NCBI GenBank assembly: GCA_000934665.2
Contig: JYFJ02002748.1
Location: 1-64,000 of the forward strand
DNA: 64,000 nucleotides
Reading direction: 5' to 3'
DNA from: Catajapyx aquilonaris
Lineage: Eukaryota
Shown one piece after another: positions 4,331 to 52,100 of the stretch (positions within the stretch are counted from its first letter, which is position 1; each line of letters opens with the position of its first letter). The notes beneath the pieces were generated by a model. It had not been told where the DNA came from and did no database searches. It was given only the letters and a program-made list of their open reading frames with translations. The position numbers and the translations under genes were made by a program.

Positions 4331-7300
4331 ATGGAGGAGAGGGACAGACGTACCATCATGAGCAACCTACAGGCACTGGTGGAACAAACCCACCTAGATG
4401 TGCTGGGTCCTCTGGCGGTGACGAAGAAGATTTTCCGGCAGGACGACATTGATGGATTTCAAGTAAGATTTTAGGAGCTTCTTATGAAATACTGAAATGA
4501 CTTTACCAGTTGCCAGGTACAGGAATACCAATCACAATATTCAGATTGACCACCAGATTGTGTAGTATGGTCATGGAGAAACACTGTAGAACCAGAAAAA
4601 GCCTAATGCAGAATATCTGCTTATTGATACAGAGGGAGGAGGGATGACTACTTAGAGTGTACACTGTTGCACCTGCCAATAAGAAAGTTATATCAGTTTT
4701 AGTACAGATGCTTGCATTGCAATGACTTCATCCTGTATCACCATTTTTTGTGATGCCTAATTAATCTGGGGGGGGNGGGGGGAAAGCCATGACGTGATAA
4801 GAAGAAAACTTTATACCATTACATAATCGAACTTATGGGTGAACAGGTTTTAAAATACATGATTAGAATCCTTGTTCTCCTCTCTTCCCATTGGTATTAA
4901 AAATAAAATTACGAAACGTGCCAATTGAGTTTCTCCTGCCTTCAAGGTACACTAATCCTTGAACAAGTTGGGCTGTAGAAATAGGGCAAAAGAAAATTAG
5001 TTTAAGAGTATTCCTTTTTCTCAAAACTGAAAGGTAGCTCCAGGGACATTTAAATGGAAAGACATCATATGCCACACAGGAATTGGCAGGAAAACAGCAA
5101 CAGGAACTTTTAAAAATCACATTGCAATCCACCTCCAGGGAAAGTTTGCCAGCCCACACATTCAGGTCAATTCCCTTTAGTTCACAGCATTCATTTGCCT
5201 GATGAACCCACTGTAACAGACGATTCACGTTTCCTGTCTGTGACCTTGATGAATTTTTCAGTTCTGAGAAAAATGTGTTTCACCCTTGGAATCACTTTTT
5301 TTTCTTGCTGCCTGATTTTCAGAGCTCAAATTGTCCAAGGCATGATGTGTCCTTTTAATATTATAATATCAGTACATTGCACCTGATTGCAGTTTTACTT
5401 TGTGCTATTGACGCCTGATTTACCTGCAATGTGTTGGAGCAAATCTATGACATAGGAGAATTTATTATCCCCTGCCTTGGTTATTTGTATGACCATATTC
5501 TAAGCCTGCAGTTGTTACCAGTGATAACAACTTTGTGTGCGTAATTGACCTTCACTATAGGCATGGGCATGATAAAAGAATAGATGTAGTCTCTGTCATG
5601 TATTTGAATGTGAGGGCATTGCCCTGAGTGAGTCACCTTTCCTTGAAATGTTCAAGGTCATTATAAATTAAACCACATGGTTGCATCATGAAGTGCAACA
5701 CATTGACATACTAACACAATGGTTTATGGCTACCTCCTGGTGCCATAATTGGGCTGGCAATATGCCGCAATATGTCCATTAGTGGGGGGGGGGGGGGGGG
5801 GGGNTTTCTTGCATTTCTTCTTTTACAGGAACCATTTCCAGAATTGGGGAAATCAGTGAGTCGAATACATCTAAGCAAATAGTAATGACTTGTTACAAGT
5901 GATGACATCAATGATTTTTTATTATGATGTACATTTTTGTACCTGTTACTCCGATTAAAGTTGAAATTATGGTCTCTTCCATTTATGGTGGCCCTGGTGT
6001 TGAAATTCAGTGTGTCAATAACTCTAGTAGTATTGATAAATTTTTAAACTTACAATGTGTTCCAATTATTTTGGTCCTTTCAGTTATTGCAAATTTTCTG
6101 AATCGGTTATTTTTGCGTATTGTTTGTGCCCGGATCAAGGTTTCCAATTACACAGCTGCTGCTGTATTTGACCAACCTGAGAATACTTATTACTAAGCAC
6201 TGCAATTGGGGTACAAAAAAACCTACACAAAAATTGCAACTTCGGGCAAAATTTACGATAACTAACAGGACTCGAATTCATGGAACACACTGAAATGTAC
6301 TGTACGTATTATCTGGCCCTTCCAACTTTCCAGTCACAACCCTCTACACGAGAACGGAATCGAGAATTCTACTTGGCTGTCCAGAAGAGAGGCCCCGTGG
6401 CTTTCCGATCCCTAGTACATATTCTGGCTGAGAGCGGCCACTTTGACCTTGCGAAATTGCTGAACCCAGTGTTTGACGTGGAGAGACATTTTCTCGAGTT
6501 GAAGGTGGATGAAGAGTCTGGACCAGCACAAATAGTTCTTGGACCTCACACAGGAGGGTGAGTATTGATGTATTGTACTGTGACATTGCTGTCAGTGTGC
6601 CATACATTTGCATTGGTCTATTGCAGAACGGTGCCAAATGGCATTCCAGCGTATGAAAATGAACATCTTAACAGCGTAGATGCAATTCCAGTTAATGTCA
6701 AACGGAAGCCTATCACAGTGAAAGTCAAGAAAGCCACACGCTACTTTGGGGAACCTGAATACAGGGTAGGTATTGCTGTCAAAATACCTGCAGTTTTCAC
6801 AAGGAGGCATGTCACAGTTGTTTTTTTCTCACTGTAGGCCTACAAAATGACGTCAAATCCTAAAGGATACTGTTTTATCGTTAATAATGTGGAATTCATT
6901 AACGGCTGCCATGAACTCAGAGAAGGGGCTGAAGTGGATGGGAAAAATATGATCGATTTATGGCATGGGTTGGGATACAAAGTGGAATACAAAGAAAACT
7001 GCGGACAAATGGTAAGAGTAAAACATTCTTAAGAACTTTCGTGATACCTTTCTCCCCCCCCCCCCCACCCACCCACCCAACATGCCATTTCTCTCCTTAT
7101 CCATGAGAAGTGTTGAAATGTTTTTAAAATTTTTATATTATTCTTTGCACTTATGGCTGGTTTTATGTAAGCAAATAGGAGAAATCTCCAATTGTGTACA
7201 CAGTATTCATAATACTACAGTTGAATTGGGGATTTCCTCCTTAATTTGTGTTGCTACAACCCAATATGTGACACTCTTAGTTCCAATTACTATTGTAATA

Positions 7301-9097
7301 ACCTCCTAATTGCAGGATTTTAGGAATGCTCTGGTCGCTTTTGCTGAGAAGGTTGAGCATGCTGATGTTGACTCATGTGCTGTGGTCATTATGAGCCACG
7401 GCAGCACTGCTGGTATAACAATGTGTGACAGCAAGACCATTGAGTACGAATGGATTTTTCGCCAGTTCAACAACTTATACTGCCCACGGCTTCAAGGGAA
7501 ACCAAAGATGTTTTTCTTTCAGGCTTGCCGGTACTAAAAACTTCATTTATGCAAGCCCTTTGCTGCAACTAATGTGTTGTGCTTGTTTGCAGGGGTGACA
7601 CAGTGGACTATGGTGCAACTAGGAGATCTAGCACCTCTACAGATGGAAAGCCTGTGCTGGGGGAAATGGTATCACCTCGTACTCCTGACTCTTCGAAACT
7701 AACTACCTTTTCTGACATGTACTTGGCAAGATCATCATATCCTGGTGAGATATTTACTGGAAATTGCAAATCACAATTGCCACCAGTACACGAAAGGGGA
7801 GACCTTGAGAGGATATCTTCAAGTCAAGTTGTATAATATTGATTCAGATATTCTTGTGCCCATTTCCCCCTTACTTTTCTGGTCTTCTTATTGGTTCCGA
7901 GTCAGATATGGCATTGCAATAAGTTAGTGCCAATTAAATTAATTTAGGGCAGAGGGTTATGCCTATTGTCCACATAAAGCAACTGCGGTTTCCAATAATT
8001 GGTTTTTAGTTGGGCTCCACTATGCCCGGGCCGGCAACCTTGACCATGGTTTTCTGTGGTTTTCCACGGTCTTTCTAGGGTAATTCCAGGGTCGCTTCCG
8101 TATAATAGGCCACAGCCGCTTCCTTCCTTCCCTATCCTTGGAGGTTGAAAGGCAATGCTGGGCCAACCTCCTTAAATATCAATTATAAAGTGTATAGGTC
8201 CCCTTCACCCTGTATAGGTGGGGAGATGAGTAGCCAACCTACTGGTATTGTCTTTAGCGTCTATAAAAAGTACAGTAATAGGATTCCCATTTCTTCCTGC
8301 AGGTTATGCATCGATTCGAGATCATGACACGGGAAGCTGGTTTGTGGAGGCCATTTGTACAGTCTTCATGGAAATGGCACATAACACAAACTTGGAGGAT
8401 ATGATGAAATTGGTAAGTAGTAATAATAACACTGTCCCACAAAATGTTTAAAAAAAATTTGGCACGAGATTTTATTGATGCCTAAACCTAACTCAAGGTA
8501 CTGATTTCAGATCTGCTTCCTGTTTGTCTGTATCTCATAAAGGCAATTTCACAAACTCGGGGTTGTGAGAGTGGGGCATGTGGGCTTTTCGCTTCGCACT
8601 CATAGAAAGTCCACCCAGTTGGATGCCAGCGCAACACTAGCCATTGCATGCAACATTTGTGAATAGCCCCTCTCAAGTTTGCCATGCTTCATGTGCCCTG
8701 CTCTCACAAAGTGAAACGGCCGTAAGGTTTTCTTGCAATGATGATGTGATAATTTGATTACATATACAATTACTTACAATGAAACAGGTGGCATGGTGGT
8801 GTAGTAGTGGCTAATGAAAAAATAGAAACAGATCTGAAATCACTGCACTCAAGTTATGTTTAGTCACCCATAAAACCCAGAAAAATCATTGCAGGGTAGT
8901 GTAACTTCTGATATTGTCAGTTGCAGTACTTACATGTCAAACTACTTTTTTAACAGGTTGGAGTAAAGGTTGCAGCCCTAGAGGATGATTTGGGAAGGAA
9001 ACAAACAGTTGTGACAGAAAGCCACTTATTCACAAAGAATTTATATTTCAACCCAGGATTATTCGCCAATCCCAGTCTTACCTATCCCAGTAGTTAA
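4331..9097 (+). CDS. Dronc: Caspase A: CARD-containing initiator caspase (Dronc / caspase-2/9-like), 8 coding exons, about 428 aa
   Basis: Exons 4331-4462, 6334-6557, 6627-6765, 6838-7011, 7316-7530, 7593-7744, 8303-8412 and 8957-9097; all GT-AG, total 1287 nt in frame. CARD-like N-terminus (KRGPVAFRSLVHILAESG), p20 motifs REGAEVD, IMSHG and KPKMFFFQACRG, p10 motifs GYASIRD..GSWFV and LYFNPG. Confidence 0.93.
8010..8240 (+). mobile_element. SINE-like insertion in a caspase A intron
   Basis: Contains GGTTTTCTGTGGTTTTCC...GGCCACAGCCGCTTCCTTCCTTCCC, resembling the body of tRNA-derived SINEs common in hemimetabolous insects. Boundaries are approximate. Confidence 0.45.
8482..8863. mobile_element. 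MITE-like element with about 42-bp imperfect terminal inverted repeats
   Basis: Left end CTAAACCTAACTCAAGGTACTGATTTCAGATCTGCTTCC versus reverse complement of the right end CTAAACATAACTTGAGTGCAGTGATTTCAGATCTGTTTC. Confidence 0.6.
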
Positions 9098-9349
9098 TAT
9101 GTGTGAACTTGTATCAACTGCCGGGGGAATGGATCCTCATACAGGTGCAAGCAAGATGGACAATGCAAGTCATTTTCACTTTGTTGCCTTTGCCATGACA
9201 TTTGCACAGTAATTTCCATGGTTGTGCTTAGTTGTAGCCAACTCAGAGTTGTGTCATCAGCTGCATCTGATCTGGAGGGGTTGCAAGCTTGAATGTTGCA
9301 TTCAAAAATTGGCTATGTTTTCTCCTAGTAAAACTAGCACCACTAGTGC

Positions 9350-9470
9350 TTGATTGCACCAACTGAATTACCGATCCGATATCTCCTAACAGACTGTTAG
9401 GTAGACCTTTTAACATGTGCTAACGATCCGTTAGGAGCTTTCGAATTGGTAATTTCGTTGGTGCAATCGG
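9350..9470. mobile_element. Short fold-back MITE in the putative caspase A 3' UTR
   Basis: GATTGCACCAACTGAATTACCGAT...TCCTAAC pairs with GTTAGGA...ATTGGTAATTTCGTTGGTGCAATC. The same end sequence TGATTGCACCAACT recurs at about 45631. Confidence 0.6.
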
Positions 9471-10210
9471 CATAGGTCACATTGGTCAAATACACCATGA
9501 AAGTGAGTTGCAACTTGTTTATGTGGACTGTGCCATGCAAATTTGACATGCATGATGCATCTTGCAGCCATGAGTAATCCACCCCTGAGAATTTTGTTGC
9601 AAGCTTTGCTCAAGGTATTTTGAGATACAGTGGAGACGACTTGGGCTGCAGGACCTTGATGGTTGGGTCAGCCTCTATGCTCTCTTATTATTAGTGTTTG
9701 AAGATGGATACTTCATGTCTATTTCTTGTCACAAGTCAGATCAAGTCACAGATTTGAATGGTGTAACCACTATTCTTTAGTGGTTTAATGTGAGAAATTA
9801 TAATTTTGCACAATTGTGCCTGGAATTATTGTCATGTTAAAGTGCTCCTCTGGCTGGCACCATATGAACTGATGGTGAATCAGCAGATTGCATTGAAAAT
9901 ATCTGAACTGAAATGTAACATGTAGTTTTGTTTAGAAGTCATTTTGCTATGGTTTATTTTCTGCTGTGTGGTTGTGCTTAATATCAGGCCAAGCTTCCTT
10001 GACATAATGTGGAACAGGATCTCATCAAGGAAAGCAAGGTATCAGTTATTTAACAACAACAGAGAATGAACCCCAATTATTGATAATGAGAGAAATGCCT
10101 GCAGTACAGAGATATCTTACAATGATGGAGTGTGAAAGGAACATTATTGCCAACAAGATGATATGGCTGGTCACAGAAAGTGCAAGTGTTCTGTGGGATG
10201 ACGGGAGATA

Positions 10211-10380
10211 CAGTGAAACTTGTCCATAATGGACCTTGAGTATAGCAGAAACTTGTCCATTGTGAAGTAATTTCTGGGAACGGGCAAAGGACATGCGATG
10301 TATTTTTTGACGGATATAGCCAAAACCTCTCCATCATGGATTGGGGTCCCATGCAATTCTGCTATACACAGGTTTCACTG
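10211..10380. mobile_element. Tc1/mariner (pogo/Tigger-type) MITE
   Basis: TIR CAGTGAAACTTGT ... ACAGGTTTCACTG, preceded by TA; internal duplication of GAAACTTGTCCAT. Confidence 0.6.
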
Positions 10381-10628
10381 CATCAATACCCAATGTCATA
10401 CGTGAATCATGTCATGTATCATAACCTCAGTTAGTTTCCTCAGCTCCTTCAGTGAATGTAATTAAAAGTTGTAACCAGTCCTCTCTGTCTTTGTGCTGTG
10501 ATGGTACAAGTGTTTCTGTGGTTCGCTGCGCCAATTATTATTTGTACTTTTATAGAAATGATGATGTGAAGATAAGTAGAGTGTCAGTATGTGAAAATAT
10601 TGTGCCTTATAATATGTTAAGAAATGGG

Positions 10629-10634
10629 AATAAA
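10629..10634 (+). terminator. Candidate polyadenylation signal of caspase A
   Basis: AATAAA followed by T-rich sequence, about 1.5 kb after the stop codon. Confidence 0.45.
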
Positions 10635-11436: not shown

Positions 11437-14400
11437 ATGGAAGAAGTTCACAAGCAAATGATACGGAAGAATCTGTCTACTTTGGTGGAACACACAGATC
11501 TGGATTCCTTGTGGGAAAAGTTAACAGGCAGAGCCATTATATCTGAAAGTAAAATGACATCAATCAAGGTAGGAATTACATGCAGCTAAAAAGCTGCCTA
11601 GTTTTTAGATATAATTATCCATTTATTGTTCTCTCTTTTTGTTCGGGGTGAGGGGAGGTTGGGTTTTCTATACTGTATACCAATATCCAGAAACTCATAT
11701 CTGCGTTTTTTTTATTCGCCCTAACTCAAGTTCTGCTGTAGGTAGAGCTTCCATAATTTGAACACAGATCCCCACCCTCGTGAAGTACATTCCTACCATT
11801 TATGGCTAAACTCAATTCCTCTTCAAAACTCCACAAAAAATTTAAACCCCCTAAAAAATACGTTTTCATTTTTTGCTCAATAACTATTCGGAATTTGGTT
11901 TCTTCATCAAAGAGCTGAATGCGCAGTAGGATGGTGCGGATCTACGTTCAAAACCTCACAGTTCCACCTGCTACAGGATGGGAGTTATGATTTTTTTTCC
12001 CCCAATTTTTTCCGCCAAATACTTCATTTGTTCATGAATCCATCACCTAGCAATGTTAATTCTTATTTTACCGACTTGCCATATTATTACCGAAATGTTA
12101 CCCCGCTGCTCTAGGGTGAACGCATTGTACTTGTTACATTTGAATCTGGATCGGGGAGGTGTGGTGGCCGAGATGGTAACGTCTCGGCTTGCTGAGTGAA
12201 AGGTCCCAGGTGGATCCCCGCCTGGGGAACTTTCCTTTCACCTGCGTCAGGAGGGTCTCTGGCCTGCACCAAGGAGGTGTCTGGCAACCTAACCTCCTGG
12301 GGAACAGCACATGACCCGTAGCTACGACATTGCACCTTGCACCCATGTTCGCTCCCCAAAAATCCCTATCCTTTCCCATTGTCCCTGTTTCCTTGCACCG
12401 GAGAATGAAGTGAAAATATACTGTATACAGAAAACTGAGGGTGGTAAGCCACCCCCCTATAGCTCACGTAAGGGACATCACGGGGTAAAATAAAATTAAT
12501 AATAATAATAATAATAATAATTGAATCCGGATATAACAGCCTCGGCTATAACAGACTTTTGGTTGTAAATGCCGGTTCCGGCATGCTTCATCCATAAGGC
12601 CCTGTGTATTTGACTGCTGATTTAACAGACTCATTTAAACCTCACCTAGGGTATAACAGACCATTTCTTGGCCCCTTGGTGGGAAAATATACCATAGTTT
12701 TCCAGGCAAATAAAATTTGCAGAAGCAAATTTTGGATCTTTTGGTCCTGCATTATTTTCGGGTGAGCTAATATTGCATTTTTGACAGATTTCATTAATAG
12801 GTATGTAGTCTAATAGTGCGTATTACAGCCATATTGTAAGCAGAAATCTCTGTTTTCGTTGCGTGACGATTCGGCCATAACAGACGTCTTGGTTATAACA
12901 TACTTTTTCCGCGGTCTCTTGAAGTTTGTTTTATCCGGATTCAACTGTAGGCTACTATTAACCCATTCGCTACCTGCTATATCACCATCGCCAGGTATTA
13001 CCAGCCAACTGTTAACCTGATTTAATTATGAAATTATGTTACACTGTGCAGAATATCTACCTTGAAAAACATGCCAGACGAATTTGCTGAAATCGTCGCA
13101 TTTCGCGAAAATTAAATCAGTTTGGGAGTTTTCAGATGTGACGGAGGAAAGTCGCAGATAAGTATTGATTTAATTATTGCAAAGTACCACCATTTCAGAA
13201 AATTCGTCTGGTACAGTTCTCAATGTATATATTCCGTATATTTTAACGTACACGCTATTTCATAATTAAATCAGACTAACAGTTGGCTGGTAGCACTCGA
13301 ATCCCGTTTTATAACGACTATCTCTGAGAAAATCATTTTAGGAACTTCCAAGCGACGAAAATTGTCTCCAACACATTCTTGGTGCAGACTGTAGTGTAGA
13401 GCATAAACGTGTTAGTATAATATGATACGTATAGCACTATAACTGTTATTATTTGTAAAATATATTGTCCTTATCTTCAGTACGTGTATGAGAAAATCTA
13501 GGCGATGGCGGTATAGCTGGTAGCGAAGGGGTTTAAAAAAAAGAACTGAAATAAGAGCAAAAACATTCCCTCTAGCGAAAAAAAAGGGTAGTAAGACCTC
13601 CGTGGCAGAATGAAAGTACTGAAACAAGGCAGGCGCACGTAAGACCTTCACCACAGGTCTTACTCAAGCAATTCTCAAGTACCGTACTGTATGGAACGGC
13701 TCGTAAAAATTACTGAGCATGCAAACTACTCAGAGCAGTAGGCAGGGTTTTATTTTGAAAGGGAAAAAATGAAGAAGAAAAAACCCTCATCCTCACAGAC
13801 TTGAAAATTTTCGCCGGCTTCAGAAAATGCAGAATCAAATGGAAAAAAAACCTCTAAAATTCACCAATTATTTACGTTTACATTGTGAAAAATAAAACAT
13901 TAAGAGTTAAAATCAGCATCTAAAAGAGGTGACGATTCTGCACGAATGTTTCATGGCAATAAATTTGCACCAATCGTATAGTCGGCTAATTAAATGTGCT
14001 CAATATTGAAGTTCCTCATTTCAGAAAACACTTACATGGAGTGGCTCATGGAAAATTAATGGGTGGAATTTTCGTCGTACTACTAGTAACAATAGTTACT
14101 GCTAACTTAGCAGTACCATTGCACTACACTGGTACTGCTAAGATAGAAGTAACTAGTAGTAAGTTACACCAAAAATTCCACAAATTGTTTTCAGAAAGGA
14201 GACTTCATGAGCAGTAAATTGGAAATTGCTTGAGTAAGACCTATGGTACAGCTTAAATCAGTTGGTGAAGGTCTTACGTGCGCCTGCCTTGTTTCAGTAC
14301 CTTCATTCCGCCGCGGAGGTCACTGAAGGGAATGTTTTTGCTATTATTAGAGAAAATGTTACTGCAAGAAGATGATGTAAGTCACTAAAATGCTAAGCAG

Positions 14401-16526
14401 AGCAGAAAGAGTGGAGAGTGTGGAGCTCCCCTCGTGCCTGCCATCTGTTTCTTGGAGTTGTCTCAATTAACAGCCTCGGCTTTTCTATGTATTGATCTTT
14501 TACTCTGCAATTACCTCAATGCTTATTTTATACTTTGCAATGGATTACTTCAGTCCTGCACTTTCAGGCAATAGAGGATGCTGAGATGCAGAAGACAACT
14601 TTCTATCGTGAGGTGATGAAACGTGGTCCATCAGCTTTTTCAGCCTTGGTTGACTCTCTAGCAGAGAGCAACCAAATTGATCTTGCAAAATGTTTGAATC
14701 CAACATTTGAGAGGCAGTCTCAAATGGATCTCTGTATAGATGGGTTAGTACTGCATTAGTCTTACATTGTTGGCATGCAAGTGAAATTCACAAAATCCAA
14801 AAAACCAATTTCAAGATAATCGAATGCAAAGATTTGACCTTGTTCTGGATGCTAGTGACGACAGAAAATCCTGGATTGGTGGTTCCTTACGAATATTTAG
14901 AACTAAATGGACTTGACCAGGTGATATGGCAAAAAAAAGCTAATTGGTAGTGTGATTAAACAAAATAATCAATATTGTGTCAGACTTGGAATAGCAGATG
15001 AAACCTCCTTTACCCCAATTGCAATGCACTCAACTTGATGTTGCGCAGTTTCAGTTCAGTCCTTTATTATACCACATGTGACCTTTTTTTAAAAATAAAT
15101 ATTTTCTCGTATTACAGCCGACTGAGTATAAAAATCAAGACATCTTCCCAGCACTACTTGGAGTTATTACCTCAAGGAAGTGAGGTAATGCAGTTTTACT
15201 AGTTTAATGCACACTACTGCACATGCAACTTTTTAGACATGAAAACATGAAATGTTATTCCAATTTTCAATATTTTCATGATGCTTCACTTAATAAATAT
15301 CCATGTCACTACAGGCATATGAAATAGACTCAACCCCAAGAGGATATGCACTCATCATCAACAATATACACAATGGTAGAGCAGCCTGCAAGACAGCAGC
15401 AGAGATTGATGGTGAAAATATGAGGGATTTGTGGACAGAATTGGGATACACTACACAATACCACAGCAACTGCTGCAAAGACGTAATACTGATCATACTT
15501 TATTTGATGAATCATGAAACATTTTAATTTACTGCAATGGCGCCTCATGTTGTCTCTAGGAATTTGTGACAGTGATCACTGAGTTTGCAAGGGCAGATCA
15601 TTGGAAAAAAGTGAGCTCATGCATTGTTGTGATCATGGGCCATGGTGATGAAGAAGGGATTGAAACTTATAATCCGGATTACGATAGTGTCTCATACAGA
15701 TGGATTTTGGAGCAATTCAACAATAAGAATTGTTTGAAGCTGCATGAAAAACCCAGGGTGGTGTTCTTCAATAGCTGCAGGTGACGTATTAGCGCTTAAT
15801 GAACTGTACTTTTATGTTAACTATGTAAAAACTATGTAAATCTATGTAAAGAGCACTTCAATAATCATGTTAAATTTTCAGGGGTAGCGTAAGAGACAGA
15901 GGAGTTTCCAGACTCTATGCAGATCAAGACCAAGATCTGTCTTCTGACTACAGTTTGGATAGAATCAGTACCCACTCAGACATGTTCATTTATTCAGCCA
16001 CAATTCCAGGTAAGCTCATAAGTTATATTTACCCTACTGTAATTAGGAAGTCATCTGATGACAATAATAATAATAGGCCTACATATGCATAGAAATTATT
16101 ATGGCAGATGTTGCTAAATCAATTATTTTCATTATAACACATTGTACTTTTCTTGTTGCTTCTACCATTTTTCTTGCTACACAAAATTATCCAAAATTAA
16201 GAATTGGCATAAACAATAAGTACAAAATTATGGTTTTTCACAGGATACAAAGCATTTACAACTACCCAAGGAAGCTACTTTGTGCACGCCATTTGTTCCA
16301 TTTTTATGGAATATGCATGCACAATGGATTTGGCATCTATGATGGAAAGGGTAAGTGAAATACACTGGTGTAACTGTAGGATGGTCATTGAATAACTATG
16401 GCCTAATCCATTCAGGTAACAAAGGAAGTCCATGACACACGCAAGAATCACCTCTATCAACAGACTGTACAGGTTGAATTACAAGGTGTTGCAAAAAAAT
16501 TGTACTTTAACCCAATGCATCAGTAG
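11437..16526 (+). CDS. Caspase B: CARD-containing Dronc-like paralog with a non-canonical active site (NSCRG), 8 coding exons, about 369 aa
   Basis: Exons 11437-11568, 14568-14743, 15118-15184, 15315-15482, 15560-15780, 15882-16009, 16244-16350 and 16416-16526; all GT-AG, 1110 nt in frame with no internal stop, same intron positions and phases as caspase A. Motifs KRGPSAFSALV, IMGHG, KPRVVFFNSCRG, GYKAFTTTQGSYFV and KKLYFNP. Confidence 0.9.
12110..12520 (+). mobile_element. Possible 3' fragment of a non-LTR retroelement ending in an (AAT)n tail
   Basis: GC-richer block inside an AT-rich intron, ending in AAAATAAAATT(AAT)7-8 that directly abuts and truncates the left TIR of the next MITE. No RT motif was recognised. 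Confidence 0.35.
12521..12947. mobile_element. Tigger/pogo-type MITE with truncated left end
   Basis: TTGAATCCGGATATAACA ... TGTTTTATCCGGATTCAACTG followed by TA; several internal (T)ATAACAGAC subterminal repeats. Confidence 0.7.
12958..13536. mobile_element. piggyBac-type MITE with an internal second inverted-repeat pair
   Basis: TTAA-CCCATTCGCTACCTGCTATATCACCATCGCC ... GGCGATGGCGGTATAGCTGGTAGCGAAGGGGT-TTAA; internal inverted repeats at 12999-13034 and 13257-13292. Confidence 0.7.
13554..14343. mobile_element. Non-autonomous DNA element with long (about 120 bp) terminal inverted repeats
   Basis: AGCAAAAACATTCCC...GTACTGAAACAAGGCAGGCGCACGTAAGACCTTCACCA..GGTCTTACTCAAGCAATT is mirrored at 14224-14343. 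Confidence 0.7.
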
Positions 16527-17602
16527 ACTATTCTTGCTGATTACATTGAACAACTCATGTTCAGACAGTGTCTGACAACGTACATAATATTAAATTTTTT
16601 TGGCACGCATATGCAACAGTTAATCTGCCTATGGTTCTTTGGAGGAGGGATGATTATTATTTTGTTTTGTATGCATAATCTTATTAAAACAATTAAACTG
16701 CTGCATGTAATAAATTTTTACACCGACATTTGTTTACTCCTGTCACATTTGCATGTTATTTCAGTTTCTGAAAGCGTCGAACTAGCAACATTCTGTCAAT
16801 GGTTTCTGATAATGTGCGACCCTTGAACTGCCTATGCCTGTGGCCTGGATTGGGATGCAACAAGCTACACAAAAATAACAGCTTCTAGCAATATTTCCTG
16901 TAACTAAAAGTGCTTGTATACTTGGAACACCCTGTATTTTAATATTCCTTGTTTTGGGTGCAAAATGGTACCGCCTGATCTTTCTGTATCCAAAATTAAA
17001 CACTGATTAAGTGCACGTCCAAGCTGAAAATACTGTAGATGTTAACTCCAGATAAATATTATTACAGATGTGACAAATTATGTGAACTTAAACTTTATCT
17101 AATCACATGTATCACTTACATTTGATGTAATGTTCCCATGTGCAAAAATAGTACAGTATACTTTACATGATAAAATGTGCTACTCCACTTCAGATTATTA
17201 TTTAAGGAACCTTCCTAGGAATCGTCAATGGCAGGTACTGCAAATGTACTGTACAAGACTTCTCAATTGAATGTTACCTTAGATGCTTAGAGAAATTTAT
17301 AGTATACAGTATATTGCAATTTTCTTGCAAGAATCATTCAAGTACATTGTATCAAAAGATCATCCATATTTATATTGTAACGGAACTGCTCCAAAATTAT
17401 GCTCCTCTCTCATCTGGGTTGATAGGATTACTTCTTATCTGAATGCAAGCAGGGAGCAAGGTTAAGTGTCTTGGGATTGAAATGTATTCCTAATCTTATC
17501 AGGCAGGGAGGGGTGCACACTTGCTGCAAGAGCAGCGTAAGAGTTACAGGGATATTGGAAGCTCTTATTTCTCAGTTTCATCTCCCCAGTGGCACAATCA
17601 TA

Positions 17603-19483
17603 ATGGAAGCACAGCATAAGCAGGCAATAAAGAAAAACTACTCATTATTGGCAGGAAACACTAATTTGGATACATTGCTGCAGAAGCTTGAAGGAATAGG
17701 TCTCTTATCTGATAAGTGTATAGCTACCATTAAGGTAAGAATATATAAATGATTAATTTTTTGTTTCATAAAACACTTTTTAAAATAGTAACATTGCTCT
17801 TCTTAATTAACTAAAGTAAAACTGCTCTTATCATTTTTCATATTTAGAGTAAACCTGCACATGAACAAAATGCAGTCTTCTACCAAGAGATTACGAAACG
17901 AGGTTCATCTGCCTTTGAAGCATTGATTCATGCTCTAGCTGAAAGTGGTCAGAGTCAGATTGCCACAGTTCTAGACCCAAAATTTGATGCTGAAAGTTAT
18001 CTGAAAGGACTAGCCACTGGCACACCCGAATTCATTTTCAGTGCAGATGGGTTTGTACACCACCGTCACTATTGCCAGCAAGAAAAACTTGTAAATAACT
18101 GGTACTGTATGTTAATTTTTTCAGAACAGAAAAAGTACGTGCAGGCATGTTGCCTATGAGCATCAGAACATCAGATGATCATTACACAAAATTTTTGCCA
18201 AAGCATTGTGAGGTAAGGTGTATTTTTCCATGCCTTGAATTCAATATTTAGCGATCTCTTGCTTTTACAGGCATACACCATGGAGTCAAACCCAAGAGGT
18301 TATGCTCTCATCATTAACATCATATTCAGAGGTACACCATCCTTCAGGGAAGGTGCTGATATTGACGGAGAAAACATGAAAAATTTGTGGTTAGGAATGG
18401 GTTACGAAGTTGAGTACTATGAGGATTTAAAGAAACAGGTGTGATCTTTTAATTATTATTATTTTTATGCTATAATGTAATTACCTATTTATTTATTCTG
18501 TAAACTTTTTAGAGTGCTGAAGATAAGATGGAAAAATTTTCCAAGAAAAACTTCAGTAAAGTAGATTCATGTGTTGTTGTGATGATGAGTCATGGATTAT
18601 TGGAAGGAATTCAGACTGCAGATGGCTGCCTTCTCGAGTACATTTGGATTATGGACAAATTCAATAACAGAAATTGTCCATCTTTGCAAGAAAAACCAAG
18701 AATATTTTTCTTCCAAGCCTGCAGGTATAATAGATGTCTACATGCCATTCTCGTAAATACCGGTATATAATTTTATTTCTAATCCATCACTTTTTCGCTT
18801 CATCACTGATATTTGGTAACTGGTGTACCCTGCACCTTTCACTGGGTGCAACTCTGAATTATGAAGCACTGCTGTATATATGCAGCCTACACTAAAGTTT
18901 TAACTTAAATTTTGATTACAGAGGCAATACACAGGATACTGGAGTACCTGTAGCAGGGCTACAGATGCATGCTGATCGCCTTCCTGAACCAATGGGACCT
19001 GTAACAATCACTAACACTTATCTGGACACATTTTATTACAATGCTACAATTCCAGGTGAGGTGTCGCTGTCATGGAGCCTAATATTGAGCTAATTATTAA
19101 TACTTTTGATTTCTTGTAATACTCGTACATCTGCAGTTCTGCCCTTGCGACTGTGATGTTGCAATATTCGCTTCTACTCTACAGGTTACGCAGCATTTCG
19201 CTGCTGTCTAGGAAGCCTCTTTCTTCTCTCCATTTGTGATGTCTTTATGGACTTTGCATATGAACTGGATTTGGCATCTATGATGGAGAAAGTAATAATA
19301 CTTCAGGTGGTCACTTAGGTTTAAAATGACTGATACATTCACTTCTCATCATTACAGGTCACAGTGAAAGTTAACAAACTGTGCCAACTGGGGGATTATA
19401 GGCAAACAGTGAATGCAGATCTTCGAGGTGTCCAGAAGAAATTGTACTTCAACCCTCCAAAGCTACCAGGAACACTTGTGTAG
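17603..19483 (+). CDS. Caspase C: CARD-containing Dronc-like paralog, 8 coding exons, about 389 aa
   Basis: Exons 17603-17734, 17848-18050, 18125-18212, 18271-18438, 18513-18724, 18922-19055, 19185-19291 and 19358-19483; all GT-AG, 1170 nt in frame. Motifs KRGSSAFEALI, REGADID, MMSHG, KPRIFFFQACRG, GYAAFR...GSLF and KKLYFNP. Confidence 0.92.
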
Positions 19484-21563: not shown

Positions 21564-24500
21564 ATGGGGAAGAAGGAGCCCAGGTGCAGTATGATTTGTG
21601 TCACGTACTGTATGAGAGAGTTGGGTCTTTAACCCCACCACTTGATCCACAGCAAGGGGAGAGTGTGGGAGCGGGACAGGAGAGACAGGCTCAACCACAG
21701 CTTCTCAAGCTTGGCCAAACTGCTGCCGGAATATGACCCTTCACTCGCCCTGAGCAAGATGAGCATCCTTGAGAAGGCTGTCAAATACATCAAGGAACTA
21801 AAGCATTCCAACAAGGAGCTGGTCATTGGAAACGGAGGAAGCGAGCAAGGCATGCTACAGTCAATGGCTACATTTTGAAATCCATTTGCATCGTAATTTC
21901 ATAGATTGTGTACTTTTACCCTCCTTGTATTGTTCAGTACCAAGCAAAAGTCCATGTGCGAATGTCGGAGGGAGGTCTCTCGAGTACAGTCATGCGTTTA
22001 ATCCAAATATGTTCTTCAGCTGAAATGGTGAAGAGCCTGGAAAAGAGAATGGAAGAGCTAGTGAATCGCAATCAACAACTGGCAAACCTTCTCAAGGTAG
22101 CAGGAATCACCCCTCCCAATGAATCTGGTTCAGGCCCTGCTCTGGGCAAGCGTCCAAGGAAGTGGACCAACCAGCTGTCTGCGGAGGACGTCGAAAATGC
22201 TGGTGGACTGGTCAGCAGAAGAAAAAAGAAAAGTAATGTCTTGGTAAATCACTTATTAGGTAGTTTGTGCAGAGAACACCTTTTGTTCAACATTCAATAT
22301 GAGATATGAAATGTTGTGTAGTCATGTTAAGAATTTTTTGTTAAATTTTTCGGACCTGACTGCATTATTATACTGACCAGCTTTTGTAATGAGTAAAACT
22401 GGGACATCGTACATAATAGTGTAGAAATATGACTATTACAAGAAATTTTCACAGGCCTGAGCAGTGTCACTGTATAAGTTACATACTGTTACTTACCATA
22501 TTTTAGCACCAAACTTACATTACCAGTACATGCAAATTGTCTCCTCTTTCCAGAAAAAGACAAAAGCAGCATCAACACAACAGAAGATACACCCTCAACC
22601 TCCCAGCCATTGTCCCACCTCCAGCCAAACAGCAAAGCAAAACCAAAGCAATCTGAGACATCAAAGACGTCAACAACAAAAGCAACAAGTAGCCCCAGCA
22701 AAAGCGCCCAGAATCCATCATCCAAGAAGGCACCTGTCAACACCACAACCACTGCTTCGCAGATTCTCTCACAGCAGATAATACTTATCCAACCACCAGC
22801 GACAACTACTATGCCGCCACCTCCAAGAATAATTCCCCCTGCGGTCTTCTCAAGTGGGAGTGGTCTCCAGCAGGGAATAGTGATGACCAAGTCACTTCTG
22901 ACCACTCCCATAATGGCCACTGGTCTGGTGCCGTTTGGCGGGTCAGCATTGATGCAGCCACCACAAACATTCATACTGACCAGTGGGCAGCTTCTACCAG
23001 TTCTGCCGTCAATCCCAGTCATAAGTCCGCCAAAAGTAAGGACAGGTGAAGTTAAGGCCATTGCACCAAAGATAGGTAAGGATAGGGTGGCTATACCAAT
23101 GCTGAAGAAGACTGTTACCAAGCAGACAAAGAGCTGTGAGAGAAAGAAGAAGGTCGGGAAGGAGAGTGACAAGGGGGGCCACAGTGAGAAAGCAGGTGAA
23201 GTGCCAGCCACCACTGAGGAGTCGGTTACAAGCAGTGCGGCTGCGCCAACAACCACAACCATGGCCAGCCAAGTTCCTAATATAATCACCAATGTAACTG
23301 ATTTTGAAACGACAAACATTGCCAATGTTGAACCATCTGGTGAGTCTACTACAAGTGAGACTGCTGTTTCACCTGTCAGCAGCGGAACATCCCTGAGGGA
23401 GAACTTTGCGGCACTTGGTGATCATGGCAATATTTCTACAGTTGATGTTTTAGCAAACAACAGAACTTCCATGATAGCAGTCAGCAGTGTTCCTGCCAGT
23501 GTCACCACTGCGATTGGTTCTATCCCAAGCTACAGTTTGACTGACGCTGCTATGATTAATGTTGCCCATAGTTCAAACAGCATTGCACCTGTTGCCGGTG
23601 TTGCAGATAACAGTAGTGTCAGCAACAATACTGTAAACAGTGTTTCTGGAAGCATGGGACCACTAGTTGGTGATATTCGAAGCTACAGTGTAAGTGGCAT
23701 TGGAATTAATCAGCCAATCAGCACTTCCAGTATTGCCCCGGTCGCAAGTGTTAGAAGCAGAGCTGTTCATAGTGTTTCTACAAGCATTGCCAGTGTTGGT
23801 GATGTTCCCAACTATAACATAAATGAATCAGCAATTGCAAAAGTGGCTAACAACATTACTAGTATCACACCAATTGGTAGCAACCCCAATAATGCAGATG
23901 CTAACAGCAACATTCCACAGTACAACATGGCTGGCAGTGCAATTACCAAAGGAACAGGTAATGTGGACAGGTGTAGCAGTAATAACACTGGTATGGTCAA
24001 CATGGGGACAAGCAGAAATGTGGCTGATATTGAGAGAGCAGTCAGCGACATACCAAGATATAATACAACTGTTGTTGGTATTGCTGATGTAGCCAACAGG
24101 GCATCCAGAAATTTATCGATTGCTGAGATCACCAACAGGAGCATAAGTAGTGTTGCCAGCAATGTGGCCAGCATTAGCAACATCTCGAGTTACAACACCT
24201 CCCAAGTTGCAGTGAGGAACCCTGTCAGTGGCATAACCAGTGTGGCGCCAGGTAGTGCACCCAACAGTATTGTCAACAATAATGTGGCTGAAATGTCCAC
24301 CAGCACTGGTATTGGTGAAATGATCAGCAATGCCATAGCCACTGTCACTAGTGAAGTGGCCGCTGTCTCCTACACTGACACGGACACCTCGGCTAATCAA
24401 AAGTCAACGTACAGCATAGCTGCCCTGTGCGAGATCACCCTTGGTGATAAGCAGACATCATGGTCAACAGACAAGAACAAGGATGCCGGCAAAACCAAGG

Positions 24501-27500
24501 ACTTTCCCCAAATGTTTGGAACAATGGTCCCCAAATCAAGGCCAGATCTGGATCCTCCTTCCTCCAAGATGACTGCAATGGAGGGCAGCCTCCCAATAGA
24601 CACCCCCTGCTTCTTGGACATGAATGACGACAGCCGCACCTCTGCAAATGCAGGCCTCAACCTCCCCCTGATCCTCTCAGTGGGTGCCTCCTTCGGAGAC
24701 GTCCTGCATCTCCCGTCACCCAAAAGTGTTGAAGCTGTGTCACCCACAGCCATATTTTTGTCCACCTTCCCAATAGTGAGCTCGTCACTGAGCAAAACCT
24801 CGGAAGTGGTGACTGATAGCGCAGGAGGCCTCCAGATTGAGCAGGAACATAACAAGGAGCAAGCGTATGTTGATCATGCTCTGTCAACAATGGAAAGTAT
24901 GTCCAATAAGGAAGCCGTGAGTTGGGAGCAGAGCTACCAGGTGAACCGGAAGCGAAACCAATGGAGTGTCGCACCTGGTCGGGACGTAGAGAAGCAAAGG
25001 TGAGAGCTGCATTCTTGTGTAATTCTTTCAATTCACTTTTCAGTAGCATGATAGGCTAAGGATATCACTACATAGTTTCAGTTCTGATGGAATATCTTGG
25101 AGACTAATGCATGATTTAGCCATTATTTTAACTTTTACAATGGCAGCTCATACGTTAATGTATACTTGATGTTCAATATTTCAAATGTCTCACATTTGCT
25201 TATCAGAAATGCCTGGTTTAGCATTAACAGCCTCAGATATTGATGCAACCAGAGAGTGATAGTGACGTCGCAAGCCTGTAATTACTAGTTTCATTGTTGC
25301 CCAATTATTCTCTGGTTGCATTAATAATAATAGCTTTTGTAGACTATTTTGTTACTTTGCCATGAATGACTATTAAAGTATGTGCACAATTTCAGAGGGA
25401 CGTATGTGCAAAACTTTGGTGAGAAGGGGAAGCCTGCCGAGGAACAGTTTCTGAACACTCCAGTTAAGAAGAATGTCCCCCAACCTGCCAACTCTTCTGC
25501 TTCCTCAGCATACAATTACTTTGGACCTAACAGTGGTGGCGTCCAGGAGGACCAGTTTTCGTATGCTGCACCTAGCAATAACATTGCCAGCTCAGGTGGT
25601 GCGAAGACTTCATTCACCATCCAGACTATGCTTCCAAACTCATCTGGCCCAACATTCTCTGCAGCCAGTAACGATGCTCAAGCATACTCCACCTCATATT
25701 CTGTGTCGTCCATTGCTGAGAGTGCACATGTAGCAAAAGATGTCAAGCACGTTTCATCCACACTTGCTCCAGCAACACATGCTTCAGTGAATTGCACCAT
25801 GTTCTCTGGGAATACTCCAACTTACTCCAGCTCATATAGTCTTGCCAACTCAAAGGAAAACCAGGTGAACTTCTCGCAGCCATGGACAGAGACACTCAAA
25901 CAGAACAAAATGGCATACCAGGATATGAGTGGTTCGCTGGACAACATGGAAGTGCCAAGTAAAACAGTGTATCAGCAGAAGCCGCAGCAGAAGGCGAAGT
26001 CGCCAGTGAACTGGATGACCAACCCAGTGACAACAGCATCGCAGTACCCATTCCACCTTCCTGCTATGAACTTCCAGTCACGCCAGATGGAATCGTCTGG
26101 ATATTCAGCCCAGTCGGATAACTTTGTCCTGGACACGTTTACATCTGGAACTGGATTCACCACCAACCAATTTCCTCCAAAATCAAAGACAGGCCAGCAG
26201 CAGTGGAGCAACTTCCTTAGCAAAGACAGCACCTATCCAGCCCACACATTTGTCCCACCTGTGGATGACTACATGGAGGGTCAAGCACTGGAACCGCAGT
26301 ATGCATCGAGGAAAAATGAATTTGGAAAAGCGAAAAAGGCAAAGGGTGGCTACGGCACCTTCTTGTCTGTCAGCCAGCTGGTGAGCATTATTTGTGTCAC
26401 TGGCCTTAGCAATAATTTTCAATTATTAAATTAGTTTTTTCTGCATGTTTGCTTATAAAATCACTTTCACAGCATGCCATATGATTTTGAAATGGTTTGA
26501 ATGATGTAACAAAGATTGCTTGCAAGGGTTGCAGGCCATGTTTACAGGTGTTCTGTTACATATTGACCAATGCTTCCCATCCTAGGTCAGCAACCCACAA
26601 GGAAATGCAGCGAGCAAGCGTAACAAGAGTGGACCTGACAAGAAGGCTGATAAGAACTATATGCACACAAAGACTGCAACATGGACAAACACTCGGTACA
26701 CAACAGAATCCATTGTCAAACCACCACCCCCACCACCTGTTGACAAAAGGATGCAGCGGGAGTGTCACTTCACTGACAAGACCTTGGACAACTTTGGGCC
26801 ACCCTGCCAGCAGACATCATACAACCCAAATTTCACTTACCTCCCTCAGGCAACTGCTTATGCTCCAATGCTTCCGAACATGTATCCATCCCAACCATCC
26901 ACGCAGAGCTTTTCTGGGTTGCCACCTTGGGAAAGGAAGCAAGACAATGACAACCAGGCACCAAAGCGCAAGGGGACCAATCTTTCAACTCTGAGTGATG
27001 CCAATTTGCTGCCGTACATGCCACCACCTCCACAGGCAGTGGAGGAGCCTACCCCATTTTTCCAGACTGGATTCTACCCATCCTATCCTCCTCCAGCACC
27101 TCGAGACATGATGCAGCAGCCGACACTTCCACTGGCTAATCACACATCAGCACCTAATGTGGTTCCACCACCAGTCACTAACACTGGATTTACTTCCAAC
27201 ACGCTCTTTCCGCCACCAATATCGCATCCCAATGCAAGTAGTGGAAACCAGTCGAATTCGCTGACCAGCTTCAACCTAAGTGCTATTTTTCCCGAGATTA
27301 ATGATAAGGTAAATAACACGTGATTCTTTCTCTTTAATTGCAGGTTTTAAATTTTGGCACGTTATACCATGAAACATAGTCATTGCCATTCTCTCAAAAA
27401 CATGTTTGATATTGTAATGTGAAAAATCTATGCTTATTCCTGCAGCAGAGCATGCCACCACCTCCGCCACTGGCACCGCCGCCTCCAAGCATGAACAGCA

Positions 27501-49100: not shown

Positions 49101-52100
49101 TATTCTTGGTTGCGCTGGATTGGGAGTCCGGACGACATCTTTACCTGACAGTATTAGAGATTTCAAAAGGAATCTAATGCTGCCCGGTAAGATGTGAACA
49201 GAAACTCCCTTCCTCAGGGGGTCCTCTTCTGAAACAACGGTGCATCCGACGCCGCTTGTCCTCCTCCGTGGAAAAGTCTTTGGAAATTCCACACGTTGTT
49301 TCCAAAAATAAAAGTACTCCACCACTACCCTTCCAGGCCATTAATTATCTTACGTAACATACCATAGCACCCAAAACTATATGGCATCGGATGAGCAACA
49401 ACACTACAATGTAACGCAACAATGTAATACTTCCAGCGGCGTCAAACATATTTACAACCAATTAAGTTTTGCATACAATCACATGGTACTGCAACATTTT
49501 TTCCGCGGTACTAACACATGCCCCATTGTAGCCCAAATATCGGCCACACCAGACAGCATCTTCCAGTGAAGAAGTTGCAAGGTAAACGAGGTTGCAGCAG
49601 TGAAAACGACTCTTCCCCCACCCCGTCAGGGTGGCCCCCATGCCGCCCTCACCCTATCGAACCCTCGGTAGAAAACTCGAAGAAAGTGTTGGGGGGGGAT
49701 GGTTGAGAAGGGAGAGGGTTTGTCTGGATGCAGGCCAAGAAGAGGCTGGGAATAGCCAAGTAGTCAGTCTGGGCTGTGGCATCCAGTTTGAAGCCAAGGC
49801 GCCGGAGGAGAGAAGAAACACGGGGGCCTCCAACACACATCTTGTTGCCAGCAAGGTCGCCATCGTGAGATGGTGAGATGGTCGCAAGGAGGCAGGGAGG
49901 GGAGAAGGAGCCGCATTCTTTCGCGATGATCCAAGTCCGTGGGTCGCCCTTGTCGCCTAGGAAGGGGAAATGCGCTGCTTTGGAACCACCGGAACTAAAT
50001 ATGGCTCCCATTGGTCCGAACCAAGATGGCCGATCGACCTAGGCCTAACACGTGGCTGGGACCCCTCCTGGCATTTCCGGATATTCCACGTGATGACTGC
50101 CCTTTGGAATGAACCCCGTTGAGGACAGGCTATCGGATCCATGGGGGGCATCCAGAGGAGTGACCTTCTGGTGCTAAGCAAATGGCTTCTTCTTGCCAAG
50201 AGCTTTTATCGAGACCTGCTCCTGACATGTGTCACTGCTACCACAGTGATATAAGCTGGGACACACTGATAAGCAGCACGGTAAACAGATAGGGAAGGTC
50301 ACGATCTCTAGTTTCTTGGGTTATTTTTTTCCCACATGTACATTTTTCACAACAGGCTGCATTTCGCACCCTGATGATAAATCTAACGGACGCCATGTGT
50401 CATCGCTTCTTTGGCAAGTCATTCCTAGAACTGCTAACTCGAATCGCCGCAAGACAATTAGCACAGACGAAATTACTATGAAAAAAGGCTCCATGCAGTT
50501 CTTATTATCACTCGCAGAATGTAGCAATTCGGCCATGACTTCTCTCCACGGCACGGTACTAAAACCCAACTTTCCGGAAATGCAGCAATATCTTTAGGCG
50601 CATTAAAAATAATTGGCAAAACACCTGGCTACACAATGTTACCTTCATTAAAAACACTGTCCTGTCTAATATCAGTCGCTGCAATTAAATTGATTCCCTG
50701 GCCGGGTGGGCGTGGTCCCTAGTAGGTCAAGATCATTTCCTTGCACGAGGATTAATCAATGGCATGCTACTTTTAATACACATTTTTTGTGTGTTAACTC
50801 TCCCAATCACATGTCCCGATAAACCGTATCCCATGACCATTGATTCATTACGTGACACTCACGACGCTCAGCCAGTACTCAACGTCGATTAAAATCCATC
50901 CTGATAAAACCCCCCTTCCCACATGAACCGTTATGTCACTGGTCCATTGAAGCAACTCCCCAGATGCAAATTGAATAATAGGCCAGAGTGGCCCACCAAC
51001 ACCTCCGTCCCCCTTAATTACCATGATTCACCGGATAAAATCACATAAGACCCAATTAAAAAACCGGCCCCTAATATGTCACTACGCCGCAACTATTCCA
51101 CTGGTCAATCCTACCAAAACTTACCGCAGGTCACACAGGTCACCCCAGACAGTAGCACCCCCGAAACTGCGTGGCCGGTCCACCTTCCGCAATTTGCTCT
51201 AATGAGTCCAGACTAGCTCCCAATCACGTGACGACTGCGGACTCCACCCATTGCGTTACTGTTTACGTACAGTCCTCCGCAAAATAAAAGGTCACCCTTA
51301 CTGTCCGACCCTTCCAGCTCAACAGTCACAGGATCGACAGGCATCGGGCTCTATATACTAAGCAGCCAACTGACCTCCCCCCCAGTCATCCGTGATGGGG
51401 CTTAATCGGTCTTTAAGCGGACCCCCCCCCCNCCCCCCCCCCCCCAAGTCTGGCGATGGTCCAGTCCCAGTCCCATTCGACATAGAACCAACAACCGGGC
51501 GACGATAAGAAGCTTATGCATCATGCGACCCCAGTATTTATCACAAGTAGGTAATGGGATCAAGGGTCTTGGCCTCTACAGAATGCCCTATCAGTAGCGG
51601 GTCCTTGAAGTCATATAGTATCAGCGGGTCCATTTTTCGGGTTATGACTGGGAAAAATAGCTGGCGAATCATACTGGGAATGACCCAACCAATAGTCATG
51701 CTTCTTGTGACCCGTTTGATTCATAATAATCATACTTTTTAGTGTAATAAAAATCCAGCCGTTAGATGGCGATGAGCTACGTCGCCATCTGTTGGTAGGT
51801 ATCGTCCTATGCCGCCTAGTTATGCCCACGTGCCACTGGGGGAGGTCCTACACGCGCAGACGTGACTACTTTTTTTTTTACACACGTGTGCACGGTACCC
51901 CCAGATTCACGACTCAGCATGGAAAAATACCCGCCTCTCATCTCGCCACAAACGGTGGTCATTACCGCAGCCTTGACCGCCCAGTCATCTACTTTTCGGA
52001 GGGTTGTCCGTGAGCCATCTGCAACAAGTGGCTGCCACTGCTTCCGTTTTCATTTGGGGAAGGGATTAGGAGAAAGGGGGAGACGGTGCATGGTTGTATA

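Follow-up and report, generated by a model that had tools for sequence, protein, structure and literature searches.

The caspase locus

The window analysed here, a stretch of 64,000 nucleotides of eukaryotic DNA with short GT..AG introns (positions 1 to 64,000 of the forward strand of contig JYFJ02002748.1, Catajapyx aquilonaris, assembly GCA_000934665.2), carries three caspase genes. They lie head to tail on the + strand, have a common layout of eight exons each and are designated caspases A, B and C. Caspase A (bp 4331-9097, 428 aa) and caspase C (bp 17603-19483, 389 aa) are canonical CARD-caspase paralogs, with the active-site motifs REGAEVD, SHG, QACRG and GYASIR in A and REGADID, SHG, QACRG and GYAAFR in C. 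Caspase B (bp 11437-16526, 369 aa), the sister of C, is the middle gene of the trio and the subject of this report. Its motifs are KTAAEID, MGHG, NSCRG and GYKAFT, and both these and the canonical motifs of its two neighbours, first read from the DNA letters in a first-pass annotation of the window, are found in the rebuilt proteins. The unbroken eight-exon frame described for B in that annotation was likewise recovered in our gene model, in which all seven introns have GT..AG borders.

Exon 1 of caspase B (bp 11437-11568) begins with an ATG start codon, ends at a GT donor and encodes the first half of the CARD, while exon 2 (bp 14568-14743), in frame between AG and GT borders, encodes the second half. 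Exon 3 (bp 15118-15184, AG/GT borders) encodes the linker between prodomain and protease and is aligned with the third exon of both A and C. Exons 4-7 occupy the region from bp 15315 to bp 16350. The protease domain starts in exon 4 (bp 15315-15482), which encodes Lys151 (AAG, bp 15390-15392) at the position of Arg179 (caspase-1 numbering, used for pocket positions throughout) and Ala153 at the position of a conserved glycine. Exon 5 (bp 15560-15780) encodes Gly208-His209-Gly210 (bp 15638-15646), Asn252 (AAT, bp 15770-15772) at the Gln283 position and Cys254 (bp 15776-15778). Exon 6 (bp 15882-16009) encodes the intersubunit linker with the sequence LYADQDQD (bp 15913-15936); the Asp sites previously noted in this linker (LYAD/QDQD) are therefore present, and YAD is aligned with HAD of caspase C. 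Exon 7 (bp 16244-16350) encodes the small-subunit strand GYKAFT, with Thr303 (ACA, bp 16258-16260) at the Arg341 position. Exon 8 with the stop codon (bp 16416-16526) is followed by a 3' untranslated region (UTR) that extends to at least bp 16776.

Domain content and relationships

Profile and tree both assign caspase B to peptidase family C14A. When whole proteins were compared with a caspase profile made from 45 relatives, A scored 390 bits, B 325.6 bits and C 308.8 bits. Exon 5 of B alone matches Pfam Peptidase_C14 at 40.4 bits (cut-off 21.4) and also matches the solved chains of caspase-4, -2, -1 and -9, while exons 4 and 7 alone score 19.9 and 14.7 bits with the same Pfam family, under the cut-off. 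The CARD is divided between two exons: exon 1 alone scores 14.7 bits with Pfam CARD (E-value: 0.031), under the cut-off of 23.9, and a Pfam scan of exon 2 alone gave no family match. With a profile made from six relatives in which Pfam identifies a CARD, residues 1-94 of B scored 74.5 bits (E-value: 3e-22) in an alignment that spans the exon 1/2 junction. The corresponding scores for A and C are 71.4 and 60.9 bits, and the best of 900 shuffled sequences scored 10.8 bits. From these profiles caspase B is assigned an N-terminal CARD, as in CARD initiator caspases of the Dronc, caspase-2 and caspase-9 kind.

In a tree with 45 library caspases, made by a quick method from rows selected by their likeness to exon 5 of caspase B, A, B and C come out as a single clade (SH-aLRT 97) within which B and C are sisters (SH-aLRT 97). 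This clade lies among arthropod caspase-2/Dronc-like rows, with the deeper forks weakly placed. All 11 library clusters with a named organism are from arthropods (beetles, a bug, a cricket, horseshoe crabs, spiders, a mite and an ostracod) and are annotated as caspase-2-like, Dronc, Nc-like or caspase-3. The three proteins of the window share 37.6% (A-B), 38.1% (A-C) and 44.6% (B-C) amino acid identity, and synonymous divergence between them (pS 0.70-0.81) is saturated. They are old paralogs, and because of this saturation the ratio of nonsynonymous to synonymous change (dN/dS) between them is uninformative.

The S1 pocket of caspase B

The P1 aspartate of a caspase substrate is bound in a pocket formed by Arg179, Gln283 and Arg341 (PMC11121540, Fig. 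1 legend; PMC2064784), and in clan CD proteases generally three S1 residues are described as setting the P1 preference (PMC2064784). In caspase B, Lys151, Asn252 and Thr303 replace the Arg179, Gln283 and Arg341 found in A, C and most relatives, such that this basic pocket is not present. The catalytic residues are retained: B has His209, Gly210 and Cys254-Arg-Gly, with His209 and Cys254 in the invariant catalytic columns.

The equivalence of these columns was checked with a MAFFT alignment that included 47 library caspases and with a profile alignment of 202 domain rows. In both, the columns of Arg179, Gln283 and Arg341 are occupied in B by Lys151, Asn252 and Thr303. In the solved chains of CED-3 and caspase-2, phmmer likewise pairs Lys151 with the Arg of TRNG and FRSG; against caspase-2 p12 its alignment ends one residue before Thr303. 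Pairwise local alignment was dropped for the Arg341 column, as a loop that is one residue shorter in B and C moves the column, and the placement of Thr303 is accordingly based on the PGY anchor that B and C have in common, together with the multiple alignments. The previously noted combination of R>K, Q>N and R>T at the pocket with an intact catalytic dyad is thus upheld by the MAFFT and profile alignments and, for Lys151, also by phmmer. Aligning B with its relatives, which had been proposed as a check, does place Lys, Asn and Thr in the pocket columns, but it also indicates that one of the three replacements, Gln283>Asn, says little, since many Dronc-like caspases have N, H, S, E, P, I or V there. 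The codons of the three pocket residues differ between B and C (AAG versus AGG, AAT versus CAA and ACA versus CGC) by at least five base changes. Given these residues, caspase B is predicted to be incapable of binding a P1 aspartate in the canonical manner.

Among the 202 domain rows, 93 could be compared at the pocket, having all five columns filled and both His and Cys present. These rows are not independent, and they were chosen for matching exon 5 of caspase B best. The canonical R-H-Q-C-R pattern is found in 66 of the 93 rows, one pocket change in 21, two in five and three in one, which is caspase B. Most of the rows with one change differ at Gln (16 rows, with N, H, S, I, P or V), while four differ at Arg341 (L or K) and one at Arg179 (G). 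The five rows with two changes are all R-H-E-C-T and come from isoforms of a single "caspase-2/Dronc-like" gene of Halyomorpha halys. The 93 domains include 91 with Arg179 and 83 with Arg341, and only caspase B is without both arginines. Asn at the Gln position is present in annotated Tribolium Dronc-like proteins that keep both arginines. A full-text literature search for the pentapeptide NSCRG gave no caspase paper among the matches listed, and searches of open-access literature on pocket-residue substitutions turned up no caspase with all three residues replaced.

Several other library proteins depart from the canonical pattern. The pocket variants from H. halys are P0058 and P0152-P0155, and two Trichonephila spider proteins (P0140 and P0164) have the pattern R-H-Q-C-K with the dyad kept and are independent pocket variants. 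P0157, P0017, P0001, P0002 and P0003, from Tribolium madens, Notodromas and Medioppia, contain two full caspase domains in tandem, with H, N or S at the Gln position; they may be real double caspases or gene models that were fused.

Transcription and splicing

Contigs of the public run X1 that are spliced relative to the genomic DNA were read as cDNA, and caspase B is therefore considered to be transcribed and spliced. Record 4 (785 nt) joins bp 15592-15777, 15879-16006, 16241-16349 and 16415-16776 with no mismatches and no gaps. Its three joints (15777>15879, 16006>16241 and 16349>16415) correspond to introns 5-7 of caspase B, each with GT..AG borders. In caspase A, X1 contains one GT..AG joint (7529>7592), and in caspase C five, all at predicted exon borders. 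Lack of a transcript, one of the objections foreseen in the first-pass annotation, is accordingly answered for exons 5-8, while exons 1-4 are not among the listed records. The same division holds for the suspicion that the substitutions might be assembly errors: the spliced contig, which may derive from the same animal as the assembly, has the same codons for His209, Asn252, Cys254 and Thr303, and the Lys151 codon lies outside the listed records.

Two further features were observed in the X1 data at this locus. Records 2 and 3 (304 and 1003 nt) lie at bp 9070-10630, downstream of the caspase A stop at bp 9097, which suggests either a long 3' UTR of caspase A or another transcript. High-copy repeats are located at approximately bp 7848-8334 (intron 6 of caspase A) and at bp 11744-12717 and 13205-14665 (intron 1 of caspase B); the summed contig depth is 2496 in the bin of the caspase A repeat and 23-245 in the bins of caspase B intron 1, and the contigs at these repeats have many loose ends and non-canonical joints. 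No tRNA was found by ARAGORN in the repeat of caspase A intron 6.

Divergence and constraint

In the caspase B coding sequence, 169 single-base changes would give a stop codon, and the probability that its frame would still be open after 0.05 neutral changes per site is 0.06. With A as the outgroup, 38 changes are unique to B and 36 to C (chi-square 0.05); for the protease domain the numbers are 28 and 20, respectively (chi-square 1.33). The end branches in the quick tree are 0.84 for B and 1.01 for C. Because rates, branch lengths, profile scores and CARD scores are all comparable, caspase B as a whole is no more decayed than caspase C. The earlier concern that B might be a young pseudogene is countered by its intact frame and splice sites and by a protein rate equal to that of C, with the reservation that synonymous sites are saturated against the paralogs. 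Based on these results, we regard caspase B as a genuine gene that is transcribed and maintained by selection, one of three CARD initiator-type caspases arranged in tandem.

Of 33 columns with conservation of 80% or more among the 45 relatives, 32 are retained in A, 29 in C and 22 in B. The 11 residues lost from B are the three pocket residues, Gly153, Ser208, Asp200, Phe145, Phe249, Trp309 and two that are common to its siblings; near the active site these include the changes RxG>KxA and SHG>GHG. All five columns of the catalytic centre (H, G, C, R and G) are kept. The hypergeometric probability that all three pocket columns would be among the 11 losses is 165/5456, or 0.03, in a post hoc calculation. 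This pattern points to changes in caspase B that are focused on substrate binding, but is no proof that B is still catalytic. The "coordinated loss" of the pocket proposed in the first-pass annotation holds insofar as the three columns are lost together, but the loss is wider than the triad, as it takes in SHG>GHG, RxG>KxA and other positions.

Predicted function of caspase B

The reading that we favour, with a confidence somewhat short of even, is that caspase B would still be a catalytic enzyme with a weakened or shifted P1 preference that is processed in trans at the YAD/DQD linker. Its CARD would recruit it to the adaptor platform that would also serve A and C; no Apaf-1/Dark-type adaptor gene lies in the 64-kb window itself. 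The linker would be cut by the Asp-specific siblings or by effector caspases, and not by caspase B. With a charge of +1 rather than +2, and more room, the S1 pocket would bind Asp poorly and would prefer perhaps Glu (as in Dronc) or a small or neutral P1 residue. This altered preference would give caspase B its own narrow substrate set. A precedent in the same family is Drosophila Dronc, which has PFCRG in place of a motif whose Gln is part of the pocket, and which is described as cleaving after Glu as well as Asp (PMC2180229). Like Dronc and the arthropod caspase-2-like CARD caspases, caspase B combines a CARD with a caspase domain, and the Gln283 position is variable in that group. Unlike these relatives, in which Arg179 and Arg341 are kept at the frequencies given above, B has lost both arginines, and the separate clade formed by A, B and C does not demonstrate one-to-one orthology to Dronc.

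Two other invertebrate proteins resemble caspase B at the pocket. Caspase-2 of Mytilus galloprovincialis is a CARD caspase reported to have substitutions at Gln283 and Arg341; its description, unlike what we find for B, gives Arg179 as conserved (PMC3037946). The H. halys "caspase-2/Dronc-like" protein P0058 (XP_014274621.1; R-H-E-C-T) keeps the dyad and has Arg341>Thr, as B does, along with Gln283>Glu, but it differs from B in retaining Arg179, and Pfam finds no CARD in it. Because P0058 is not sister to B in the tree, its Thr arose independently.

Several considerations weigh against an enzyme with altered preference. First, the geometry of the pocket is a prediction from sequence, and the choice between a protease and a regulator is a weak inference. 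Second, the loss of 11 of 33 conserved columns, versus one in A and four in C, with several of them beside the active site, is as much what relaxed constraint on catalysis would produce as what re-specification would. At the loss rate of 11/28 seen in the other columns, the five catalytic columns would all be kept by chance with a probability of about 0.085 (again post hoc), which gives retained catalysis weak support. Third, mouse caspase-12, in which only Arg341 is changed (to Lys), is regarded as a pseudocaspase (PMC11121540). Fourth, protein searches with exon 5 found no ortholog of caspase B: an exhaustive HMMER search of 1.84 billion representatives gave 153 matches with an E-value of 0.001 or less, none above approximately 50% identity, and a word-indexed protein search with exon 5 of B and of C gave no match. 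Fifth, the Lys151 codon, exons 1-4 and introns 1-4 are without coverage among the X1 records listed, and X1 is a run of unrecorded kind, kept as contigs, whose RNA origin is deduced from the splicing.

A possible, if somewhat less probable, alternative is that caspase B is a regulator of the caspase-12 or cFLIP-L type, with little or no protease activity, that is brought to the platform by its CARD and pairs through its fold with A or C. It would either block activation of its partner or form a heterodimer with a changed output. The loss of the three Asp-binding residues together with SHG>GHG and RxG>KxA, in a protein that has lost far more conserved columns than its siblings, is what such a regulator might show; B also has the highest-scoring CARD of the trio, stands in tandem with two canonical partners and has a linker Asp site aligned with that of C. 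There are precedents for such a role, as a role in modulating caspase-1 has been proposed for caspase-12, cFLIP-L heterodimerises with caspase-8 (PMC11121540) and the Aedes decoy CASPS18 enhances CASPS19 (PMC4840389). The retention of His209, Gly210 and Cys254-Arg-Gly across a long divergence argues against it, as does the fact that cFLIP and CASPS18, unlike B, have lost catalytic residues or the catalytic domain.

The choice of precedent affects how this alternative is viewed. Caspase B resembles cFLIP-L and CASPS18 in being a caspase-fold paralog that lies beside, or would be partnered with, active caspases, and these two proteins are described as acting by heterodimerisation or enhancement (PMC11121540, PMC4840389). 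It differs from both in keeping its His and Cys, and cFLIP uses death effector domains where B uses a CARD. The comparison with cFLIP made in the first-pass annotation is therefore a poor one, because cFLIP lost its catalytic residues, and mouse caspase-12, with Arg341>Lys and the dyad kept, is the closer precedent (PMC11121540). Rodent caspase-12 is, like B, a CARD caspase with a replaced pocket arginine that is encoded in a cluster with active paralogs (PMC11121540), and B shares the sequence signature of this type, that is, a retained dyad with an S1 arginine replaced. Unlike caspase-12, which has one conservative change, B has three, with Arg341 replaced by an uncharged Thr. The lineages are also unrelated, as caspase-12 is of the vertebrate inflammatory lineage and B of a protostome Dronc-like clade. 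The two roles first suggested for caspase B were a protease of non-Asp specificity and a cFLIP-like decoy; the objections to both that are discussed above (lack of a transcript, a young pseudogene and assembly error) are largely excluded, but the data do not choose between the two.

It is unlikely that caspase B is an ordinary Asp-specific initiator in which Lys151 substitutes for Arg179, Arg147 of loop 1 or a water molecule for Arg341, and Asn for Gln. Lys does retain one positive charge, Arg147 is located four residues upstream of Lys151, and the Tribolium Dronc-like proteins have Asn at the Gln position, although with both arginines in place. Against this, the two arginines are the residues named as the Asp-binding pocket (PMC11121540, PMC2064784), and B is the only one of the 93 domains in which neither is found.

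Slightly less likely still is a C14A caspase that has moved beyond acidic P1 residues altogether; a CARD platform would activate it, and its cleavage sites would follow neutral or even basic residues. S1 would retain only one weak positive charge, and there would be less shielding of the conserved Asp157, which lies six residues beyond the 179 position. In gingipain and the metacaspases, an Asp at the position of Asp157 is described as binding a basic P1 residue (PMC2064784). Caspase B has the clan CD fold and the dyad in common with metacaspases and paracaspases, in which a different S1 triad goes with a preference for Arg or Lys at P1 (PMC2064784), but their pocket is acidic (Asp/Glu), while that of B is Lys/Asn/Thr.

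We consider it improbable that caspase B is a young pseudogene in early decay, still transcribed, whose pocket changes are among the first neutral ones. The excess of changes at conserved columns would be expected of such a gene, and neither an ortholog that might show K/N/T to be conserved nor a usable dN/dS (pS being saturated) is at hand to oppose it. However, the frame is unbroken and none of the 14 splice-site dinucleotides is altered, the overall rate equals that of C, CARD and fold scores are on a level with those of the siblings, and the pocket requires at least five base changes, while a neutral frame would be expected to stay open for only about 0.05 changes per site. Assembly or sequencing error can be practically dismissed: while the Lys151 codon is outside the listed RNA records and AGG>AAG is a single-base change, the Asn252 and Thr303 codons are each two steps from the sibling codons and are identical in an X1 contig, albeit one that may come from the assembly individual.

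Other features of the window

Downstream of caspase C there are two long open frames on the + strand, at bp 22478-25003 (841 aa) and bp 25370-26434 (354 aa), which are rich in Ser, Thr, Asn and Pro and match no Pfam family. These are probably exons of one large gene for a low-complexity protein. A hairpin of the mir-8/mir-141/mir-200 family is located on the - strand at bp 49131-49199 (Rfam RF00241, 69.5 bits against a gathering score of 47) and matches the model over its full length. Two single-exon open reading frames (ORFs) are also found on the - strand: one of 410 aa (bp 58668-59900), with a match to Pfam LRR_6 and no relatives in a word-indexed protein search, and one of at least 202 aa (bp 63390-63998), which runs past the end of the window. 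The two ORFs share motifs and look like tandem paralogs.

Significance

Strict cleavage after Asp is the property that defines caspases, and it rests on three residues. Caspases that have the catalytic machinery without the whole of this triad are rare, with caspase B the single case among the 93 comparable domains. Because A and C are canonical and adjoin B, they are matched controls and the question of what B does is directly testable. If B has remained an enzyme, it would reveal how far the P1 preference can shift within the caspase fold and would point to substrates beyond the usual Asp-cleaved set. If it instead acts as a regulator, a protostome would have its own CARD-based equivalent of cFLIP or caspase-12, in which the control of an initiator caspase by a disabled paralog was invented independently. 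Should caspase B prove to cleave beyond acidic P1 residues, it would bring a second proteolytic language to an apoptosome-type pathway.

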